From Candidatus Saganbacteria bacterium (GTDB taxonomy: Bacteria; Margulisbacteria; WOR-1; O2-12-FULL-45-9), in the NCBI GenBank assembly GCA_016219705.1, contig JACRKQ010000053.1, forward strand, positions 6,793 to 70,792: a stretch of 64,000 nucleotides of DNA. Direction: 5' to 3'. Both the position numbers and the translations under genes were made by a program. The notes beneath the pieces were generated by a model. That model did not search any database, had not been told where the DNA came from, and saw only the letters and a program-made list of their open reading frames with translations. Of this stretch, positions 4,404-64,000 are shown piece by piece; position 1 is the stretch's first letter; each line of letters begins with the position of its first letter.

Positions 4404-5414
4404 TTATAGACGCAAGCTGGCAACAGGGGAGAGGGATAATGACGAATGACTAATGACTAATGACGAATTAATGAATTTATAATACCCAGCACAGCCAATC
4501 ATGGCTGCGTTATCAGTACAATATTCAAAGGGAGGAATTATTACTTCCAGCCCTTCTTTCTGACCTCTTTTTTGTAATCGACTCCTTAAGCTGGAATTGG
4601 CCGAGACGCCGCCGGCGAGGGTGACAATTTGGACGTTGCGATCTTTGGCCGCGCGAATGGTTTTCTCTACCAGCGTTTCGACGATGGCTTCCTGAAAACT
4701 AGCGACGAGGTCTGGAACTTGTGAAGCGTGAAGAGTGAGGCGTGAAACGTAATTTACAACCGCTGTTTTGATTCCGCTGAAACTGAAATCGTAACCCTGG
4801 TCCATCATAGGGCGGGGAAATTTGATGGCGGCTGGATTTCCTCTCTTGGCCAACTTATCAATAACCGGTCCGCCGGGATAACCCAAACCCAAAAAACGAG
4901 CGACTTTATCAAACGCTTCTCCCGCCGCATCATCCCGAGTCCGGCCCAGCGTTTCATATTCTCCATGACCTTTGACGAGAATAATCATTGTGTGCCCGCC
5001 GGAGACTAATAAACTAATAAAGGGAAAACTTAGAATTTTAGATTTAGAGTTTAAGAAGTTGGCGTATATGTGTCCTTCAAGATGGTTAACTTCAACCAGC
5101 GGGATTTTTCTTCCCCAGGCAATGGCTTTAGCTGCGCAGAGCCCGACGAGGAGGGAGCCGACCAAGCCTGGGCCATAAGTTACGGCAACGGCATTTATGT
5201 CGCCAAACCCAACGTTGGCTCTTTCCAGCGCTTCTTTAATGACCGGATTGATCACTTCAATATGTTTGCGAGCGGCAACTTCGGGAACAATCCCGCCATA
5301 TTTTTTATGAAATTCAATTTGCGAGGAGATGACGTTGGAAAGAACTTCCTGTCCGTCTCTGACAACGGCGGCGGCGGTTTCGTCACAGGATGTTTCGATG
5401 GCTACTATAAACAC
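4404..5414 (-). CDS. tsaD: tRNA N6-adenosine threonylcarbamoyltransferase
   Basis: Kae1/TsaD motifs (IETSCDETAAAV, SLLVSGGHT, DDAAGEAFDKVAR, AGGVSAN); contains heptamer-repeat-derived segments. Confidence 0.85.
   Translation of the reverse strand: MFIVAIETSCDETAAAVVRDGQEVLSNVISSQIEFHKKYGGIVPEVAARKHIEVINPVIKEALERANVGFGDINAVAVTYGPGLVGSLLVGLCAAKAIAWGRKIPLVEVNHLEGHIYANFLNSKSKILSFPFISLLVSGGHTMIILVKGHGEYETLGRTRDDAAGEAFDKVARFLGLGYPGGPVIDKLAKRGNPAAIKFPRPMMDQGYDFSFSGIKTAVVNYVSRLTLHASQVPDLVASFQEAIVETLVEKTIRAAKDRNVQIVTLAGGVSANSSLRSRLQKRGQKEGLEVIIPPFEYCTDNAAMIGCAGYYKFINSSLVISHSSLSLSPVASLRL
4437..4478. repeat. heptamer array (TAATGAC/GAATGAC)x4 plus degenerate units, 42 nt, encoding the C-terminal tail of tsaD
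   Basis: Direct reading of sequence. Confidence 0.85.
4721..4755. repeat. heptamer array GTGAAGC GTGAAGA GTGAGGC GTGAAAC inside tsaD
   Basis: Direct reading. Confidence 0.8.
5021..5048. repeat. irregular TTAGANT ~7-nt tandem repeat inside tsaD
   Basis: Direct reading. Confidence 0.6.
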
Positions 5415-6478
5415 AGCAGAGGAACCTCCTTTTTGGACAATGACAGTGGTCGGGCATCACGCTGGCCCAGGAAGACGTCGGGGAAGATATCAAGGGGCCA
5501 ACCCAGTTCGTTCAAAGAAAGGGAAAAATAATTAGTGGCATTATAGGCAAAATCGCCGTAGGAATGGTAGGCGTAATGTAAACTGACGCCGGCGTAATGG
5601 AAAGTTGCTCCGTAAGTGAAATTATTGGTCAAGGTCGAGCTCTGCGGGTCCTGGTCGACGCCGGCGCGTAAAGTTAAAAATGGATTAGGCGCAAATTCAA
5701 TTCCGGTATGGATGGTTGTCGATTTGGCTGTTTGCAGACTTACATTGGCGTCGGCCGCGATGGAGAGATCAACCGGCGCATAAACAGCCGCTTTTAATTC
5801 TTCGCCCAAGAGAAAAAACCGGGAGCCGATTTTTATTGAGAGAGGTAGATTTTCTCCCTGGGAATTTGCGATGATTTTACTAGAACTGAAGAGATTTTGG
5901 CCGACAACGCCAAAGCTAAACGGACCAACTCCCTGCTGCAGCAAACCGACGTCCAGGTTCCAGCAGCTGCCGGAGCCGGCGCTGACTTCATAGCCATTCT
6001 GGGTATAATATTTCAAGTTAAGCCCCCAGGAGAAGCGTTCATTAAGACGGCGGCCGAACGAGAGGAAGATAACGCTATCGTTGAAAGAGGTTGTTGATTT
6101 TGGTAAAACGCTGGCCGAATCCCTGATTTCAATTCCTCCGATATTGGCGCCGACATAACCCAGCCCGATGGCGCTCTGCTCGCCGAGAGGATAAACGCCG
6201 CCTAGCAGAGAATAAGTGACATCCTCCATGACATTGGCTGACATTGAGAGGAGTTCAAAAGCGTCGATACCGCCCAATCCAGCTGGATTGCTGAAAATAG
6301 TATCAGCGGATTCTCCGACCGCCACGTATGCTCGTCCCATTCCCAGCGCGCGGGCGCCAACGCCGATGGTGAGAGGATCAAAGGTTGTTTGGGCGGCAAC
6401 AACACTGGGAAGAAATGACAAATGACAAATGACAAATGACAAATGAAGGAATCGCTTCGCGATATTATAATAATTCAT
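5405..6478 (-). CDS. secreted outer-membrane beta-barrel protein, PorV/PorQ/FadL-like
   Basis: N-terminal signal peptide followed by GARALGMGRAYVAVGESADTIFSNPAGLG (FadL/PorV-family N-terminal signature), alternating beta-strand pattern, aromatic C-terminus; family assignment from memory only. Confidence 0.4.
   Translation of the reverse strand: MNYYNIAKRFLHLSFVICHLSFLPSVVAAQTTFDPLTIGVGARALGMGRAYVAVGESADTIFSNPAGLGGIDAFELLSMSANVMEDVTYSLLGGVYPLGEQSAIGLGYVGANIGGIEIRDSASVLPKSTTSFNDSVIFLSFGRRLNERFSWGLNLKYYTQNGYEVSAGSGSCWNLDVGLLQQGVGPFSFGVVGQNLFSSSKIIANSQGENLPLSIKIGSRFFLLGEELKAAVYAPVDLSIAADANVSLQTAKSTTIHTGIEFAPNPFLTLRAGVDQDPQSSTLTNNFTYGATFHYAGVSLHYAYHSYGDFAYNATNYFSLSLNELGWPLDIFPDVFLGQRDARPLSLSKKEVPLLCL
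6413..6452. repeat. (AAATGAC)x4 + AAATGAAGGAAT terminus, antisense within signal-peptide codons of PorV-like gene
   Basis: Direct reading. Confidence 0.9.
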
Positions 6479-13758: not shown

Positions 13759-13798
13759 AAATGACAAATGACAAATTACAAATGACAAATGAAGGAAT
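13759..13798. repeat. AAATGAC AAATGAC AAATTAC AAATGAC + AAATGAAGGAAT in efp-accB spacer
   Basis: Direct reading. Confidence 0.9.
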
Positions 13799-13803
13799 TT
13801 ATT

Positions 13804-14256
13804 ATGGTTGACTGGGAATTGGTCGAAAAACTTATCAAAACAGTTAAAGAGGCAGGGATTTCTGGTTTAGCGGTTGAAGAAAAAGGGGTTAAATATGAAG
13901 TGCGAAGCGAGGGCGGCCAGATCACTGCTCATCCGACCGTGATCTCCGCGCCGGCGCACCAGACAGTTCATGCTTCGGCAAAAGTTGAATCAGAAACTAT
14001 GGCGGAAGAAGCTGATGTGGTGGCCATTACTTCACCTATGGTCGGGACTTTTTACCGATCGCCATCGCCGGAATCGCCGCCGTTTGTTGCGGTCGGCGAT
14101 ACAATTGCTTCCAGTAAACCCGTTTGCATCATTGAAGCGATGAAGCTCTTTAACGAGATTGAAGCGGAAGTCAGCGGTAAAATTATAAAAATATTAGTGG
14201 AAAACGGCCAACCGGTGGAATACGGCCAAAAATTGATGCTGGTTAAAAAAGGCTAG
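13804..14256 (+). CDS. accB: biotin carboxyl carrier protein / biotinyl-domain protein
   Basis: C-terminal biotinyl domain with EAMKLFNEI (AMK biotinylation motif). The ORF track starts at 13789 inside the repeat terminus; ATG 13804 has AAGGA 7 nt upstream. Confidence 0.7.
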
Positions 14257-15447: not shown

Positions 15448-15857
15448 AGCGCTTGTTTATTGACACTAATATCTTTATTTACGCCCAAGGTTTGGAACAT
15501 AAATATAAGCAGCCCTGCCAGATTGTCATGCGGCTGGTTGCCGCTGATGAGATCTACGGAGTGACGAATACTGAAGTGCTTCAGGAGATTATGTATCGTT
15601 ATGATGCCATTGGCAAAAGGGAAATTGGTTTACAAATGGTCGATAATGTCCTGGCCATCATCCATGAAGTCCTGGCGGTAGAGAAAGCGGATGTTTTGCT
15701 GGCAGCCGGCTTGCTTCGTAAACATCAACAACTAAATATCAGGGATGCGTTTCATGCCGCGACAGCCGTAAGAAACAACTTGAAATATATTTTAAGCGTG
15801 GACAAGCATTTTGATCTTTTAAGTATTTTACAGCGCGTTGATCCGTTCGATATTTAA
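15444..15857 (+). CDS. vapC: PIN-domain toxin VapC
   Basis: N-terminal LFIDTNIFIYA with catalytic Asp, PIN acidic residues downstream. Confidence 0.7.
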   Translation: MKRLFIDTNIFIYAQGLEHKYKQPCQIVMRLVAADEIYGVTNTEVLQEIMYRYDAIGKREIGLQMVDNVLAIIHEVLAVEKADVLLAAGLLRKHQQLNIRDAFHAATAVRNNLKYILSVDKHFDLLSILQRVDPFDI

Positions 15858-50557: not shown

Positions 50558-50597
50558 GAATGACTAATTCCTAATGCCTAATGTCTAATGAAGGAAT
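50558..50597. repeat. GAATGAC TAATTCC TAATGCC TAATGTC + TAATGAAGGAAT filling spacer upstream of truA
   Basis: Direct reading. Confidence 0.9.
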
Positions 50598-51364
50598 TGC
50601 TTCACGATGTTATCTTATTTATTCAATACGATGGGACCAACTTTGCCGGTTTTGAATTGCAACCTGGCCAGCGCACCATTCGCGGAGAACTGGAAAAAAC
50701 CCTGGCCAAAGTTTACCAACAAAAAATATCAATTATTTCTGCTGCTCGGACTGATGCTGGGGCGCATGCTTTAGAAAATGTGGTCAGCTTTAAGGCCAAA
50801 AATAGTATTCCGCTTGATAAAATACCTACAGTGTTAAATACTGTTCTCCCACGGACCATCAGAATTATCAAGGCTGAAAAAAACAATGGTCATGTCCGCC
50901 ATGATGCTAAAACAAAAATTTACGAATACTTAATCTTTAATGGGGAAAACCTTCCGCCGCAGTTAAATCATCTGGTCTGGCAGGTCGGGCTCCCGCTTAA
51001 TCTCACGGCGATGAAAAGAGCGGCAAGATATCTAGTTGGCAAACACGATTTTTCTTCGTTTTGCGCGGCCCATTCAGATGATAAGGACTTTGTCAAAAAA
51101 ATACATTCATTTGACATTTGTTCCGCCTTAGGCGGATCATTTGTCATTTGGGGTGGAGTGAAGTATCGTTTGATCAGAATCCGCGTGACCGGCGACGGTT
51201 TTTTGTACAAGATGGTCAGAAACATTGTCGGAACTTTAGTTTGTGTTGGCTTAGGAAAGTTGACTGTGGCTGATGTCAAAGGGATCCTGGAAGCTAAAGA
51301 TCGCCAAAAAGCGGGTAGAACTGCGCCGGCACAGGGGTTGTGCTTGGTGAAGATTCGCTATTAA
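50588..51364 (+). CDS. truA: tRNA pseudouridine(38-40) synthase
   Basis: IQYDGTNFAGFELQ, RTDAGAHAL catalytic Asp motif; start ATG lies inside the heptamer-array terminus. Confidence 0.85.
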   Translation: MKELLHDVILFIQYDGTNFAGFELQPGQRTIRGELEKTLAKVYQQKISIISAARTDAGAHALENVVSFKAKNSIPLDKIPTVLNTVLPRTIRIIKAEKNNGHVRHDAKTKIYEYLIFNGENLPPQLNHLVWQVGLPLNLTAMKRAARYLVGKHDFSSFCAAHSDDKDFVKKIHSFDICSALGGSFVIWGGVKYRLIRIRVTGDGFLYKMVRNIVGTLVCVGLGKLTVADVKGILEAKDRQKAGRTAPAQGLCLVKIRY

Positions 51365-59058: not shown

Positions 59059-61923
59059 CTGGAGTACAAACAAACCCTCAATCTGCCCCAGACCGCTTTT
59101 CCCATCCGCGCTAATTTGCAAAAAATTGAAGCGGATTTGCTGGCGCATTGGGAAAATCTTGACCTCTATCAGCAAATTCAAGCCAAGAATAAAACAGCCG
59201 CTAAAAAATTTGTTTTGCATGACGGCCCCCCTTATCCTAATGGCGATATTCACCTTGGCCATGCTTTGAATAAAATCATCAAAGATATCATTATTAAATA
59301 TAAATCGATGCAGGGCTTTGCCTCTCCCTATATCCCCGGTTGGGACTGTCACGGTTTGCCGATCGAAACACAGCTGATCAAGCAGTTGACAGATGAAGAG
59401 CGCAAAAAATATAAAGAGCCGAATAAAAAAGTTGAGTTTAGGAATAGGTGTAAAGAATATGCCTTAAAATATGTTGACTTGCAGCGCCAGGAGTTTAAAC
59501 GCCTGGGAGCGCTTGGCGACTGGGAAAACCCATATTTAACGATTGATCCTCTATATGAAGCCGACATAATTCGCCTCTTTGGGGATTTGGCCGAAAAAGG
59601 TTATGTTTATCGCGGCTTAAAACCGATTCACTGGTGTCCGCATTGCGAAACGGCATTGGCGGAAGCGGAATTGGAATATGAGGAGGATAAGTCGCCGTCA
59701 ATCTACGTCAAATTCGAAATCCGAAATCCGAAATCAGAAATAAATTCCAAAATTAAAAATCCAAACTTGCCAACTGATTTGCCCTGGTTTTTTGTCGTTT
59801 GGACGACGACGCCGTGGACTCTGCCAGCGAACATGGCGATTGCAGCGCATGCGGAATACGAGTACGTATTTATTAATGTCAAATGTCAAATGACAAATGA
59901 CAAATATCGGAATGAAATTTATATTGTTGCCGAAGGTTTGCTGGAAGATTTTGTAAAAAGAGTCGGGATTACAGATTATCAAATCATTGATAAGACCAAA
60001 GGGGAATATTTAGAAGGCGTTGTCGCTAAACATCCCTTTATTGATTGCGACGTTATGCTCGTCTTGGATGAATATGTCACCCTGGAGCAGGGGACGGGCT
60101 TGGTACATATTGCTCCAGGACACGGAATTGAAGATTATAAAGTTGGTCTAAAATATAAATTGTTCCCCATTGTCATGCCGGTTACGGCTGATGGGCGCTT
60201 TGACGAAACGGTCCCGGAATTTATCCGCGGTGAATTTTATAAGAAAGCGAATGACTTAATTATTGAGCAACTCAAAAATGGAGGAAGTTTTCTCAGGTTA
60301 GAGAACATAAAACATTCTTTCCCTCATTGCTGGCGCTGTAAGAATCCCGTTATTTTTCGGGCAACCGAGCAGTGGTTTGTTTCTGTTGATCATCTTGGAA
60401 TGCGCGAGAAGGCATTGAAGGCCATTATTGATACAAAGTGGTATCCGGCTTGGGGAGAAAATCGGATTCGCGGGATGGTAGAAACCCGTCCGGATTGGTG
60501 TATCTCTCGTCAGAGAACCTGGGGGGTGCCGATTCCGGTTTTTTATTGTGATAAATGTCACCAGCCGTCAATGACCGGAATTTTTAATGAATCAATCCGC
60601 AAAATTGTTTTAGAACGGGGGACGAATGGTTGGTTTGATTTGTCAGCCAAGGAGATTTTGCCGTCGGGAACAAAATGTTCAAAATGCGACGGCGATTCTT
60701 TTACTAAAGAAACCGATATTCTCGATGTCTGGTTTGAATCAGGCTCGTCTCACGCGCTGCTGGAGCGCTTGCCGGATCATCATTGGCCGGCGGACTTATA
60801 TCTTGAGGGTTCTGATCAGCATCGCGGTTGGTTTCAAAGTTCTTTATTGATTGCTGTGGGATATAAAGGGAGGGCGCCGTTTAATTCTGTCCTGACTCAT
60901 GGCTTTACCATTGATGATAAGGGAAAAAAGATGAGCAAATCCCTGGGCAATGTCATCGGTCCGCAAGAGGTGGTTAAAGAATATGGAGCGGATGTTTTGC
61001 GTCTCTGGGTTGCGTCGACAGATTTTCGCAACGATATGGCGGCGTCAAAGAATATTCTAGTTCAGGTCAGAGAGGCCTATTCAAAAATTCGCAATACCTG
61101 CCGTTTTTTAATCAGTAATTTATATGATTTTACCCCCTCCTCCGACGTGCGTCGGAGTCTCCCCCTTGAAAAGGGGGAGAATGAGAGGGGGTTGCTTGAA
61201 CTTGACCGTTGGATACTTTTGCGCTTGAATCGATTAATTGAGAGGATAATCCAATCTTACGACGAATATGAACTGCACGTTGTTTATCACGCTCTTTATG
61301 AATTTTGTGTAAACGATCTCTCGGCTCATTATCTCGATATGTCCAAAGATCGGCTGTATTGCGACGGTAAAAGTTCGCCAGAGCGACGCTCGGCCCAATT
61401 TGCGATGTGGGAGATATTGTTTGCCTTAGTTGGAATGATGGCCCCTGTTCTCTCCTTTACGGCGGAAGACATCGGGCGGCATATGGCGGCAATGACTAAT
61501 GACAAATGCCTAATGCCTAATGAAGGCAGTATCTTTTTATCAAACTTCCCTAAAATTAAGGAAGAATATTTAGATAAAGAGTTAGAAGCTCGCTGGGAAA
61601 AGATTATGGTTTTGCGAGCGGAAGTTTATAAAGTGTTGGAAGAGAAGCGGGCCAATAAAATTATTTCGGCTTCGATTGAAGCCGTTGTGGAGATTGGCTT
61701 GCAGGGTCGGGAATGGCTGAAAGCTGTTGATCCCAAAATTCTCCCGATGGTTTTAATTGTTTCCCAAGTCAAATTGGTCGACGGAGATAAAATCGCAGTA
61801 AGTAAGGCGTCTGATCAAAAATGCGGCCGTTGCTGGATGTTGCTCCCGACGGTGGGGAAGAGCCATCAACATCCGGATTTGTGTGAGCGTTGTGAAAAGG
61901 TTGTCAGGGAATTGACAGGGTAA
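59059..61923 (+). CDS. ileS: isoleucine--tRNA ligase (probable CTG start; the ORF track begins at TTG 59116)
   Basis: HLGHALNK (HIGH), KMSKS, C-terminal zinc finger CGRCW...CERC; conserved N-terminus EYKQTLNLPQTAFP is encoded upstream of the called start. Confidence 0.85.
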   Translation: MEYKQTLNLPQTAFPIRANLQKIEADLLAHWENLDLYQQIQAKNKTAAKKFVLHDGPPYPNGDIHLGHALNKIIKDIIIKYKSMQGFASPYIPGWDCHGLPIETQLIKQLTDEERKKYKEPNKKVEFRNRCKEYALKYVDLQRQEFKRLGALGDWENPYLTIDPLYEADIIRLFGDLAEKGYVYRGLKPIHWCPHCETALAEAELEYEEDKSPSIYVKFEIRNPKSEINSKIKNPNLPTDLPWFFVVWTTTPWTLPANMAIAAHAEYEYVFINVKCQMTNDKYRNEIYIVAEGLLEDFVKRVGITDYQIIDKTKGEYLEGVVAKHPFIDCDVMLVLDEYVTLEQGTGLVHIAPGHGIEDYKVGLKYKLFPIVMPVTADGRFDETVPEFIRGEFYKKANDLIIEQLKNGGSFLRLENIKHSFPHCWRCKNPVIFRATEQWFVSVDHLGMREKALKAIIDTKWYPAWGENRIRGMVETRPDWCISRQRTWGVPIPVFYCDKCHQPSMTGIFNESIRKIVLERGTNGWFDLSAKEILPSGTKCSKCDGDSFTKETDILDVWFESGSSHALLERLPDHHWPADLYLEGSDQHRGWFQSSLLIAVGYKGRAPFNSVLTHGFTIDDKGKKMSKSLGNVIGPQEVVKEYGADVLRLWVASTDFRNDMAASKNILVQVREAYSKIRNTCRFLISNLYDFTPSSDVRRSLPLEKGENERGLLELDRWILLRLNRLIERIIQSYDEYELHVVYHALYEFCVNDLSAHYLDMSKDRLYCDGKSSPERRSAQFAMWEILFALVGMMAPVLSFTAEDIGRHMAAMTNDKCLMPNEGSIFLSNFPKIKEEYLDKELEARWEKIMVLRAEVYKVLEEKRANKIISASIEAVVEIGLQGREWLKAVDPKILPMVLIVSQVKLVDGDKIAVSKASDQKCGRCWMLLPTVGKSHQHPDLCERCEKVVRELTG
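59715..59749. repeat. (CGAAATC)x3 plus degenerate units inside ileS
   Basis: Direct reading. Confidence 0.85.
59874..59915. repeat. TAATGTC AAATGTC AAATGAC AAATGAC AAATATC GGAATGA, 42 nt in-frame in ileS
   Basis: Direct reading. Confidence 0.9.
61133..61191. repeat. 59-nt GC-rich nested palindromic element inside ileS: outer stem CCCCCTC/GAGGGGG enclosing two perfect hairpins
   Basis: Inner hairpins: CTCCGACG-tg-CGTCGGAG (61140-61157) and TCTCCCCC-TTGAAAA-GGGGGAGA (61158-61180). Confidence 0.8.
61490..61526. repeat. CAATGAC TAATGAC AAATGCC TAATGCC TAATGAAGG in ileS
   Basis: Direct reading. Confidence 0.85.
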
Positions 61924-63814: not shown

Positions 63815-63856
63815 AAATGACAAATGCCAAATTACAAATGACAAATGAAGGAAGAA
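63815..63856. repeat. AAATGAC AAATGCC AAATTAC AAATGAC + AAATGAAGGAAG downstream of ahcY
   Basis: Direct reading. Confidence 0.9.
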
Positions 63857-63864
63857 TTATTATA

Positions 63865-64000
63865 TGGCAGACGAAGGGATTAAAGAGCTAGGAGATAAAT
63901 TTAATAAACTGGCCGAAGCGATTGAAAAGGCTGGCGCGAATCATTACGCCGCTTTGGCAACTACCCCTTGGCGTTTTTTCTGGGCTAATTTTTTAATCGG
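63865..64000 (+). CDS. hypothetical protein, 3'-truncated by window edge
   Basis: ATG with AAGGAAG SD supplied by the preceding heptamer array. Confidence 0.35.

Follow-up and report, generated by a model that had tools for sequence, protein, structure and literature searches.

The window analysed here, a 64,000-nt stretch of a Candidatus Saganbacteria bacterium contig (JACRKQ010000053.1), carries on its plus strand the gene ileS (59059-61923), which encodes a type-1 bacterial isoleucyl-tRNA synthetase (IleRS) and hosts several short in-frame arrays of heptanucleotide units, the subject of this study. With the start placed at 59059, the product is 954 residues long, contains the Pfam domains tRNA-synt_1, Anticodon_1 and zf-FPG_IleRS, and is 100% identical to an NCBI entry named 'isoleucine--tRNA ligase [Candidatus Saganbacteria bacterium]' (P0001). 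The next-nearest relatives, all from Saganbacteria/Margulisbacteria metagenome bins, are 68-70% identical, and a single ileS was seen within the window using Pfam. An AlphaFold2 (AF2) model of the protein, with a mean predicted local distance difference test score (pLDDT) of 79 and a predicted TM-score (pTM) of 0.72, matches the IleRS structures 8c9e and 1qu2 with TM-scores of 0.79-0.81. Compared with the best solved homologue, Priestia megaterium IleRS1 (8c9e), the window protein has extra residues at all four of its repeat-encoded segments, referred to as sites C, D, E and F. A preliminary description of this locus had counted two such segments, which is too few, as the gene contains at least four in-frame repeat or palindrome segments.

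Site D (59874-59915, plus strand) is a degenerate AAATGAC array in frame with ileS, whose 33-nt core (59875-59907) has the 4.7-unit size usual for the AAATGAC family. Read in heptamers from 59874 it runs TAATGTC, AAATGTC, AAATGAC, AAATGAC, AAATATC, GGAATGA, and read in codons AAT GTC AAA TGT CAA ATG ACA AAT GAC AAA TAT CGG AAT GAA, giving N V K C Q M T N D K Y R N E. With Tandem Repeats Finder (TRF), the segment 59875-59905 scores 4.4 copies of period 7, at 95% matches. The coordinates and the translation KCQMTNDKYRN of the preliminary description are exact; its count of exactly six units is somewhat high, five being in phase and the sixth (GGAATGA) fitting only after a 1-nt phase shift. At most two consecutive units are perfect, and those at the ends are degenerate, agreeing with the consensus at 5/7 positions or lying out of phase. 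In the protein, a 9-residue gap in 8c9e lies exactly opposite KCQMTNDKY, so that a beta-hairpin of the CP1/editing domain is extended at its tip by a net nine residues. The AF2 model renders this segment as a two-stranded hairpin extension (strands 249-258 and 264-272, turn MTNDK) with a pLDDT of ~82.

Site F (61490-61526, plus strand) is a second AAATGAC-family array in frame in ileS, with a 33-nt core at 61491-61523 that encodes (A)MTNDKCLMPNE(G); TRF scores the core at period 7, 4.7 copies and 84% matches. Here the gap in 8c9e spans eight residues, opposite NDKCLMPN, in the linker that leaves the final helix of the anticodon-binding domain; in the AF2 model, helix 780-793 gives way to coil here, and the pLDDT drops below 50 at residues 796-803. 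As one of the two AAATGAC inserts is modelled as a hairpin extension and the other as a disordered coil, both appear to occupy peripheral, length-variable parts of IleS.

The two tracts also share a feature that bears on their coding capacity. Since 7 and 3 have no common factor, a perfect (AAATGAC)n array has a TGA every 21 nt in each frame, and in both ileS copies every would-be in-frame TGA codon is altered: to TGT (59884-86) and TAT (59905-07) at site D, and to TGC (61507-09) at site F. At site D these stop replacements account for most departures from the consensus, the other units being nearly perfect, whereas site F departs from the consensus elsewhere too and stop replacement is not its main departure.

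Both tracts belong, as the preliminary description had proposed, to the same AAATGAC family as arrays lying between genes of the window. A two-unit probe (AAATGACAAATGAC, up to 2 mismatches) matched the window 22 times against 1.04 +/- 0.90 expected, a number reached in 0/100 shuffles. Likewise, TRF found eight period-7 arrays with scores of at least 40 in the window and none in any of 30 dinucleotide shuffles. AAATGAC-family arrays were called by TRF at 4438, 6413, 13759, 50559, 59875, 61491 and 63815, so that the in-frame second ileS array encoding MTNDKC, also noted previously, is substantiated. The added residues that had been claimed for both tracts are equally apparent, from the gaps of 9 and 8 in 8c9e and from the shorter site D turn of 92/115 relatives described below.

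Three members of the family lie between genes, all on the plus strand. One occupies the efp/accB junction (13759-13792; TRF, 4.9 copies; the downstream gene has the Pfam domain Biotin_lipoyl), one, a TAATGCC/AATGACT variant, has as its last ATG the probable truA start (50559-50590), and one separates ahcY from a DUF5665 gene (63815-63848; TRF, Pfam). Each of these arrays starts 2 nt after a stop; the following start codon either coincides with its end or lies 11-15 nt further on. The intergenic module takes the form AATGAC AAATGAC NAATGNC AAATGNC AAATGA, usually followed by AGG(A), and the frame opened from its first ATG is the frame used for the peptide at site F. Among Saganbacteria-type copies outside sense-strand open reading frames (ORFs), the TGA of unit 3 is replaced in 9/14, leaving the first-ATG frame open. 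In five modules (window 13759, window 63815, and one each in contigs L010, L021 and L064) the resulting mini-ORF overlaps the downstream start. The mini-ORF of the 13759 module (13761-13811) overlaps the accB start at 13804 and stops one codon past it; that of the 63815 module (63817-63891, 24 codons) runs ~9 codons beyond the downstream start. True stop-start overlaps occur in L010 (MTNYECRMTNEGRAI and a stop, TAATG; mini-ORF 15749-15796) and in L021 and L064 (ATGA). The efp/accB junction of L010 is a mere 13-nt spacer. At the ahcY/DUF5665 junction, the module is also present in L010 (15748-15780), and in L005, L006, L007, L009 and L011 the two genes abut or overlap without it. Module presence at orthologous junctions is out of step with relatedness. 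The module mini-ORFs (MTNDK[L/C]QMTNEG...) may act as a relay that couples the translation of neighbouring genes which, in relatives, overlap or abut.

The two remaining segments of ileS extend the observation beyond the AAATGAC unit. Site C (59710-59741, plus strand; TRF, 4.6 copies, 92% matches) is an in-frame AAATCCG array, the only one of that unit in the window, encoding K F E I R N P K S E I; an 11-residue gap in 8c9e lies opposite this segment (EIRNPKSEINSK...). The array DNA is nearly identical in L009, L010 and L011, despite ~70% protein identity. When the window is compared with L009, residues shared by the two proteins are encoded by the same codon in 11/13 cases at site C but in 37% elsewhere in ileS (Fisher p = 7.5e-4), a match that holds across a ~10-point GC difference between the genomes. 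The site C arrays start within native codons that are conserved, GTC AAA TTC, and that have the look of a local seed from which an array could expand in place. In a separate comparison, L006 and L011, whose IleS proteins are 88% identical, differ wholesale in a 24-codon cassette around site C (about +640 to +710 nt), of array type in one and non-array type in the other. The sequence on either side is perfectly conserved, a pattern suggestive of recombination or of replacement of the segment.

Site E (61132-61192, plus strand) is a different kind of sequence, an in-frame palindromic two-hairpin element encoding TPSSDVRRSLPLEKGENERG. Folded in silico as RNA, it reaches a minimum free energy of -43.5 kcal/mol (z = -6.1), a stability matched by 0/200 shuffles. 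Nine residues of this segment (DVRRSLPLEKGENERG) are gapped in 8c9e, and the loop is predicted to be disordered in the AF2 model (pLDDT < 50 at residues 676-690). The site E peptide LPLEKGEN resembles LPLNKGEN, found at site D of the relative P0044, and the hairpin-encoded peptide GNREVHSQVS occupies site E in P0012 and site D in P0010 and P0061. The kin peptide at a different loop in P0044 is reminiscent, by analogy, of the behaviour of Rickettsia palindromic elements (RPEs). The three heptamer arrays of ileS are A-rich and unstructured, their RNA folds showing no structure beyond that of shuffles (z-scores reported 0.12, -0.11); a hairpin or attenuator reading of the heptamer arrays was rejected, as they fold no better than shuffles. 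At gathering thresholds, Rfam returned one tRNA only for the window and no match at the arrays.

How site D looks in other organisms was apparent from an alignment of 115 full-length relatives. In 92/115 the hairpin closes with a 6-residue turn (e.g., LKVDGE), compared to 15 residues in the window. In the remaining 23/115 the turn is longer by +1 to +27 residues (+8 to +10 in most), with unrelated sequences that include DEGRGTGD, EIRDPKSEQG and ESRTLNVEHRS; at this site, KCQMTNDKYRN is confined to the window. Strain variants of the site D insert were sought in metagenomes by a scan anchored on its flanks, with 0 matches, and a scan of genome contigs using the protein as query and the repeat-encoded peptides as patterns yielded four distant IleS loci of 23-33% identity. 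Site F is occupied far more widely: most Saganbacteria-type relatives carry a segment there of 9-12 residues or longer with 7-residue periodicity. The module lies at this site in an identical frame in the window, L005 (MTNDKCQMSNE) and L132 (MTNDKFQMTNEG), and AAATGAC-type peptides also appear in the alignment at site F of P0012, P0042 and P0063.

Inspection of ileS DNA from nine relatives (L005-L011, L132, L133) revealed period-7 arrays at about six recurrent positions, sites A-F, with units that differ between genomes and recur within one genome. In L006, GGGACGA occupies sites A and D and, reverse-complemented, site F; in L009, sites B, D and E hold the CGAGTCG type and sites C and F hold AAATCCG; L007 uses CGAGGGA and AGACCGA, L008 uses TTACGAC and GTAGCCA, and L133 has AAATGAC units at site C. 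Some arrays at sites E and F do not lengthen the protein, occupying a segment of the same length as in relatives, and at site E the GACTCGC array of L009 and the GGGTCGC array of L010 differ in all units at the same two positions. Even L006 and L011, with their 88% IleS identity, differ in array presence or type at 3/6 sites. The residue at the would-be-stop position in the IleS of other lineages is C, F or S (MTNDKC, MTNDKF, MTNDKS, KFQMTN), as expected from independent stop removal in each lineage. These findings widen the scope of the preliminary description, which had dealt with this gene copy, to a lineage-wide phenomenon. The case that the preliminary description had named as refuting its claim, the same insert in distant taxa without the intergenic repeats, was not encountered: relatives with MTNDK-type peptides in IleS belong to the same clade, and one of them, L005, carries an intergenic AAATGAC array on the same contig.

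Array size is a further regularity. Across the window and seven loci, 33/66 period-7 arrays measure 30-34 nt. A length of ~33 nt as a fixed property of AAATGAC everywhere is ruled out, however, by perfect (AAATGAC)n arrays of 33-131 nt found in >120 metagenome contigs of 22-66% GC; the discrete size is therefore limited to Saganbacteria-type copies. In variant metagenome copies, departures from TGA fall on unit 3 six times and on unit 4 four times, counts that are few. An identical variant (AATGACAAATGACCAATGTCAAATGTCAAATGA) is found in three unrelated contigs, L008, L021 and L034, and an ABC permease gene in L008 carries the module in the same open frame as site F of ileS.

Taken together, these results suggest that the site D tract is probably a tolerated passenger, i.e., an in-frame, stop-purged copy of a dispersed AAATGAC repeat residing in a permissive loop, and that all the ileS arrays and the palindrome are most likely passengers of this kind and not adaptations; we infer that the encoded peptides are neutral. 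In the mechanism that we envisage, a module of ~33 nt (4.7 units, 11 codons) would usually sit in sense orientation, downstream of one gene's stop and upstream of its neighbour's start. The two ileS copies would survive because their net length change is a multiple of three, their TGA units have been substituted, and their positions are exposed and length-variable. The site D copy would have lengthened the CP1 editing-domain beta-hairpin by nine residues and the site F copy the disordered linker by ~8, and the AAATCCG array and the palindromic element would persist in the gene likewise. More broadly, a process active across Saganbacteria/Margulisbacteria may place or regenerate period-7 arrays and small hairpins in the same permissive loops. 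Candidate origins are replication slippage from local seeds followed by gene conversion among arrays, or the insertion of a pre-formed module. By analogy, the system would resemble the RPEs, being a lineage-wide family of small repeats with in-frame, tolerated copies.

Several observations weigh against the passenger interpretation. The synonymous conservation at site C is not predicted by simple neutral decay, and could stem from continuing homogenisation, from segment exchange between lineages, or from selection at the nucleotide level. The site D frame needs two stop replacements, which is awkward for a one-step insertion in an essential gene. The recurrence of arrays at the same positions, at times of unchanged length and with every unit altered in concert (L009 against L010 at site E), is poorly explained by random insertion filtered by selection.

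Among the alternatives, it is possible, though not what we expect, that the 33-nt module and the small hairpins are selfish micro-elements that insert pre-formed, as RPEs do. An 11-codon length with one open frame (MTNDK[C/L/F]QMTNEG) would spare both genes and tight junctions, and such mobility would fit the discrete size of half the arrays (33/66 at 30-34 nt), the variant AATGACAAATGACCAATGTCAAATGTCAAATGA shared by unrelated contigs, the common frame of site F (window, L005, L132) and the L008 permease, the recurrence of the hairpin peptides (GNREVHSQVS, LPLxKGEN) at different loops in different genomes, and junctions whose occupancy is independent of relatedness. It fits less well with the equal-length replacements at sites E and F, with the seed-like GTC AAA TTC in which the site C arrays begin, and with the variable length (33-131 nt) of AAATGAC arrays in other organisms; moreover, no transposase, target-site duplication or terminal inverted repeat was seen. 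A broader and more speculative version would have an active system of micro-elements, both 33-nt modules and hairpins, moving between or being rewritten at fixed permissive sites (loops on the surface of essential proteins, signal peptides, and junctions between tightly coupled genes), with genome-specific units kept by conversion or selection and with intergenic mini-ORFs passing ribosomes between cistrons. An unlikely explanation of another sort is that the repeats act as nucleic acid, either as targets of an S1-, cold-shock- or HutP-like protein that binds single-stranded RNA or DNA and reads the heptads in register, or in translation initiation or coupling, so that the in-gene copies would regulate ileS or drive internal initiation. 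The placement of the intergenic modules exactly between stop and next start, the ATG and TGA in every unit with AGGA after the module, the five mini-ORFs that overlap a downstream start, the similarly placed TAACTGA repeats for which a translational role was proposed (PMC4679880), the synonymous-site conservation at site C and the unstructured, A-rich character of the arrays would all suit such a role. Yet quite different units occupy orthologous ileS sites, the site D copy is unique among 115 relatives, the degenerate in-gene copies retain just two perfect units, and no candidate for the binding protein emerged. Action at the nucleic-acid level is more plausible for the intergenic copies than for those within genes.

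The preliminary description had gone further, viewing the repeat as exapted, that is, with KCQMTNDKYRN and MTNDKCLMPNE recruited for an IleRS function such as tRNA contact, partner binding or stability. We consider this improbable. The ordered hairpin predicted at site D (pLDDT ~82) and the repeated lengthening of the same loops in relatives count in its favour, but the peptide is dictated by the DNA unit, the inserts at the same loops are unrelated across lineages and each is set by its own unit, 80% of relatives have no site D insert, and the site F insert is predicted to be disordered; exaptation is therefore unsupported. As for a chance likeness between ordinary loop sequence and the intergenic repeat, a reading to which the degenerate outer units of site D (5/7 matches or out of phase) might be thought to lend something, we give it almost no credence: it is contradicted by the 22 probe matches against 1.04 expected, by the lack of period-7 arrays in 30 shuffles, and by the 33-nt module at the same ileS site in L005 and L132. 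What remains best in accord with these comparisons is a tolerated, stop-purged passenger.

Several known repeat systems invite comparison. TAACTGA direct repeats, described in marine Beggiatoaceae, cyanobacteria and some Bacteroidetes (MacGregor 2015, PMC4679880), are mostly intergenic and forward, lie a few nucleotides from a start codon, often without a canonical ribosome-binding site, and differ between strains in 7-nt steps; a translational role was proposed for them and never shown (PMC4679880). They resemble the present arrays as short 7-nt tandem arrays with stop codons, and the intergenic modules of the window are placed likewise. However, the unit differs, AAATGAC overlapping ATG and TGA, and copies in ORFs are rare there, whereas here sense copies lie in frame in essential genes with their stops edited out. 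The arrays in Geobacter metallireducens, elements of four tandem heptanucleotides within and between genes (Aklujkar 2009, PMC2700814), are also alike in having about four heptamers and both genic and intergenic copies; the arrays studied here peak at 30-34 nt. The Geobacter consensus is the GC-rich GGACCGG, as opposed to AAATGAC and AAATCCG here, and those elements were annotated as putative regulatory RNA, without analysis of frame, protein loops or orthologous sites. The GGGNATC heptamer arrays of Xanthomonas and Nostoc have a preferred copy number of ~four and lie mostly between co-oriented ORFs near start or stop codons, sometimes as inverted pairs (Rehm 2015, PMC4692102); their four-copy preference was explained by a G-quadruplex, which is impossible for AAATGAC. 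The same paper also mentions arrays of short tandemly repeated repetitive sequences (STRRs), and Nostoc heptamers near start codons have been noted as well (bioRxiv 10.1101/2022.06.06.494920).

As in the STRR and TAACTGA families, the arrays of the window consist of at least three head-to-tail 7-nt units, are dispersed above chance, and have intergenic copies that lie forward and upstream of starts. Cyanobacterial STRR heptanucleotide arrays were reportedly described in Calothrix and Nostoc by Mazel et al. in 1990, and Margulisbacteria/Saganbacteria are a sister lineage of Cyanobacteria. Several families of tandem heptamer units dispersed through a genome are common to both cases, although STRRs are described as mainly non-coding. 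To our knowledge, it has not been described before that different units repeatedly occupy the same loops of a protein. In the open-access literature, we found no report of such repeats in Saganbacteria, nor of an essential enzyme whose corresponding loops hold different heptamer units in different members of a lineage.

RPEs are in-frame repeats in unrelated housekeeping genes (PMC10969869); they add peptide segments at positions compatible with the fold, and are palindromes of about 100-150 bp (PMC10969869). In-frame copies in unrelated genes are likewise seen here, three times in ileS, twice in tsaD, and in an outer-membrane signal peptide and the L008 ABC permease, and the ileS inserts lie at surface positions compatible with the fold, namely a hairpin tip and a disordered linker that correspond to gaps in solved IleRS. 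Unlike RPEs, the arrays are 31-33 nt long and unstructured; the site E element, which is palindromic but ~60 nt, is the closer analogue. Phase-variable simple-sequence-repeat contingency loci, in turn, also have tandem units whose length is not a multiple of three within a reading frame, but there the tracts are long and perfect, lie in dispensable surface or restriction-modification genes, and switch the frame, whereas here they are short and interrupted, with two consecutive perfect units only, in an essential gene in which any one-unit slip would be lethal. Phase variation was rejected on these grounds, the gene being essential and the tract short and interrupted.

If the phenomenon is genome-wide, a lineage-specific mutational process that generates 7-nt arrays and small palindromes would account for most of the loop-length change in conserved, essential proteins, and would constitute a free-living counterpart, in an uncultured phylum, to the 'selfish DNA in protein-coding genes' of Rickettsia. 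It would also extend the unexplained heptamer-repeat biology of Cyanobacteria to a non-photosynthetic sister lineage. The exact stop-to-start placement of the intergenic modules, some with a mini-ORF overlapping the start, offers a testable idea of heptamer function. In practical terms, such inserts inflate apparent divergence and indel counts in phylogeny marker genes, like ileS, of candidate phyla.

Other genes of the window contain related sequences. A perfect (AAATGAC)4.9 array on the plus strand (6413-6446) is antisense to an outer-membrane protein gene (5405-6478, minus strand) and, read antisense, would encode the hydrophobic core of its predicted N-terminal signal peptide. Separately, the N-terminal regions of UPF0164-family proteins in L006 (3988-4118) and L011 (2688-2718) carry arrays of other units. 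An AATGACG/AATGACT array (4438-4468, plus strand; TRF) is antisense to tsaD, a minus-strand gene, and encodes the C-terminal tail SSLVISHSSL of TsaD, whose Pfam match stops at residue 307 of 336; a second tsaD array, of GTGAAGC x4.3 (4721-4750), lies inside the TsaD domain, in a loop. Within truA (51100-51155), two short antisense AAATGAC-type unit pairs flank the palindrome TCCGCCTTAGGCGGA; this segment encodes HSFDICSALGGSFVIW, a hairpin, and is 3 residues shorter in relatives.

The array at 50559 is followed by a 22-nt motif, AGGAATTGCTTCACGATGTTAT. A 22-nt motif with a small ATCGC/GCGAT hairpin, AGGAATCGCTTCGCGATATTAT, stands directly after AAATGAC-type arrays at 6447-6468 and 50592-50613, with 0 expected, and also follows an array in metagenome contig L100 (4591), implying that the dispersed element is sometimes larger than the array.

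The gene ileS itself is flanked by an H+-pyrophosphatase gene on one side and ahcY on the other. All seven AAATGAC arrays of at least 4 units in the window are on the plus strand, two of them antisense to their host genes, and the GC skew is positive throughout the window; array orientation may follow the replication strand rather than transcription. Lastly, inverted pairs of arrays flanking short hairpins or a ~80-nt spacer were observed in L005 (2074-2190), L010 (2819-2960), L008 (12431-12972) and L034, which suggests the existence of larger composite elements.

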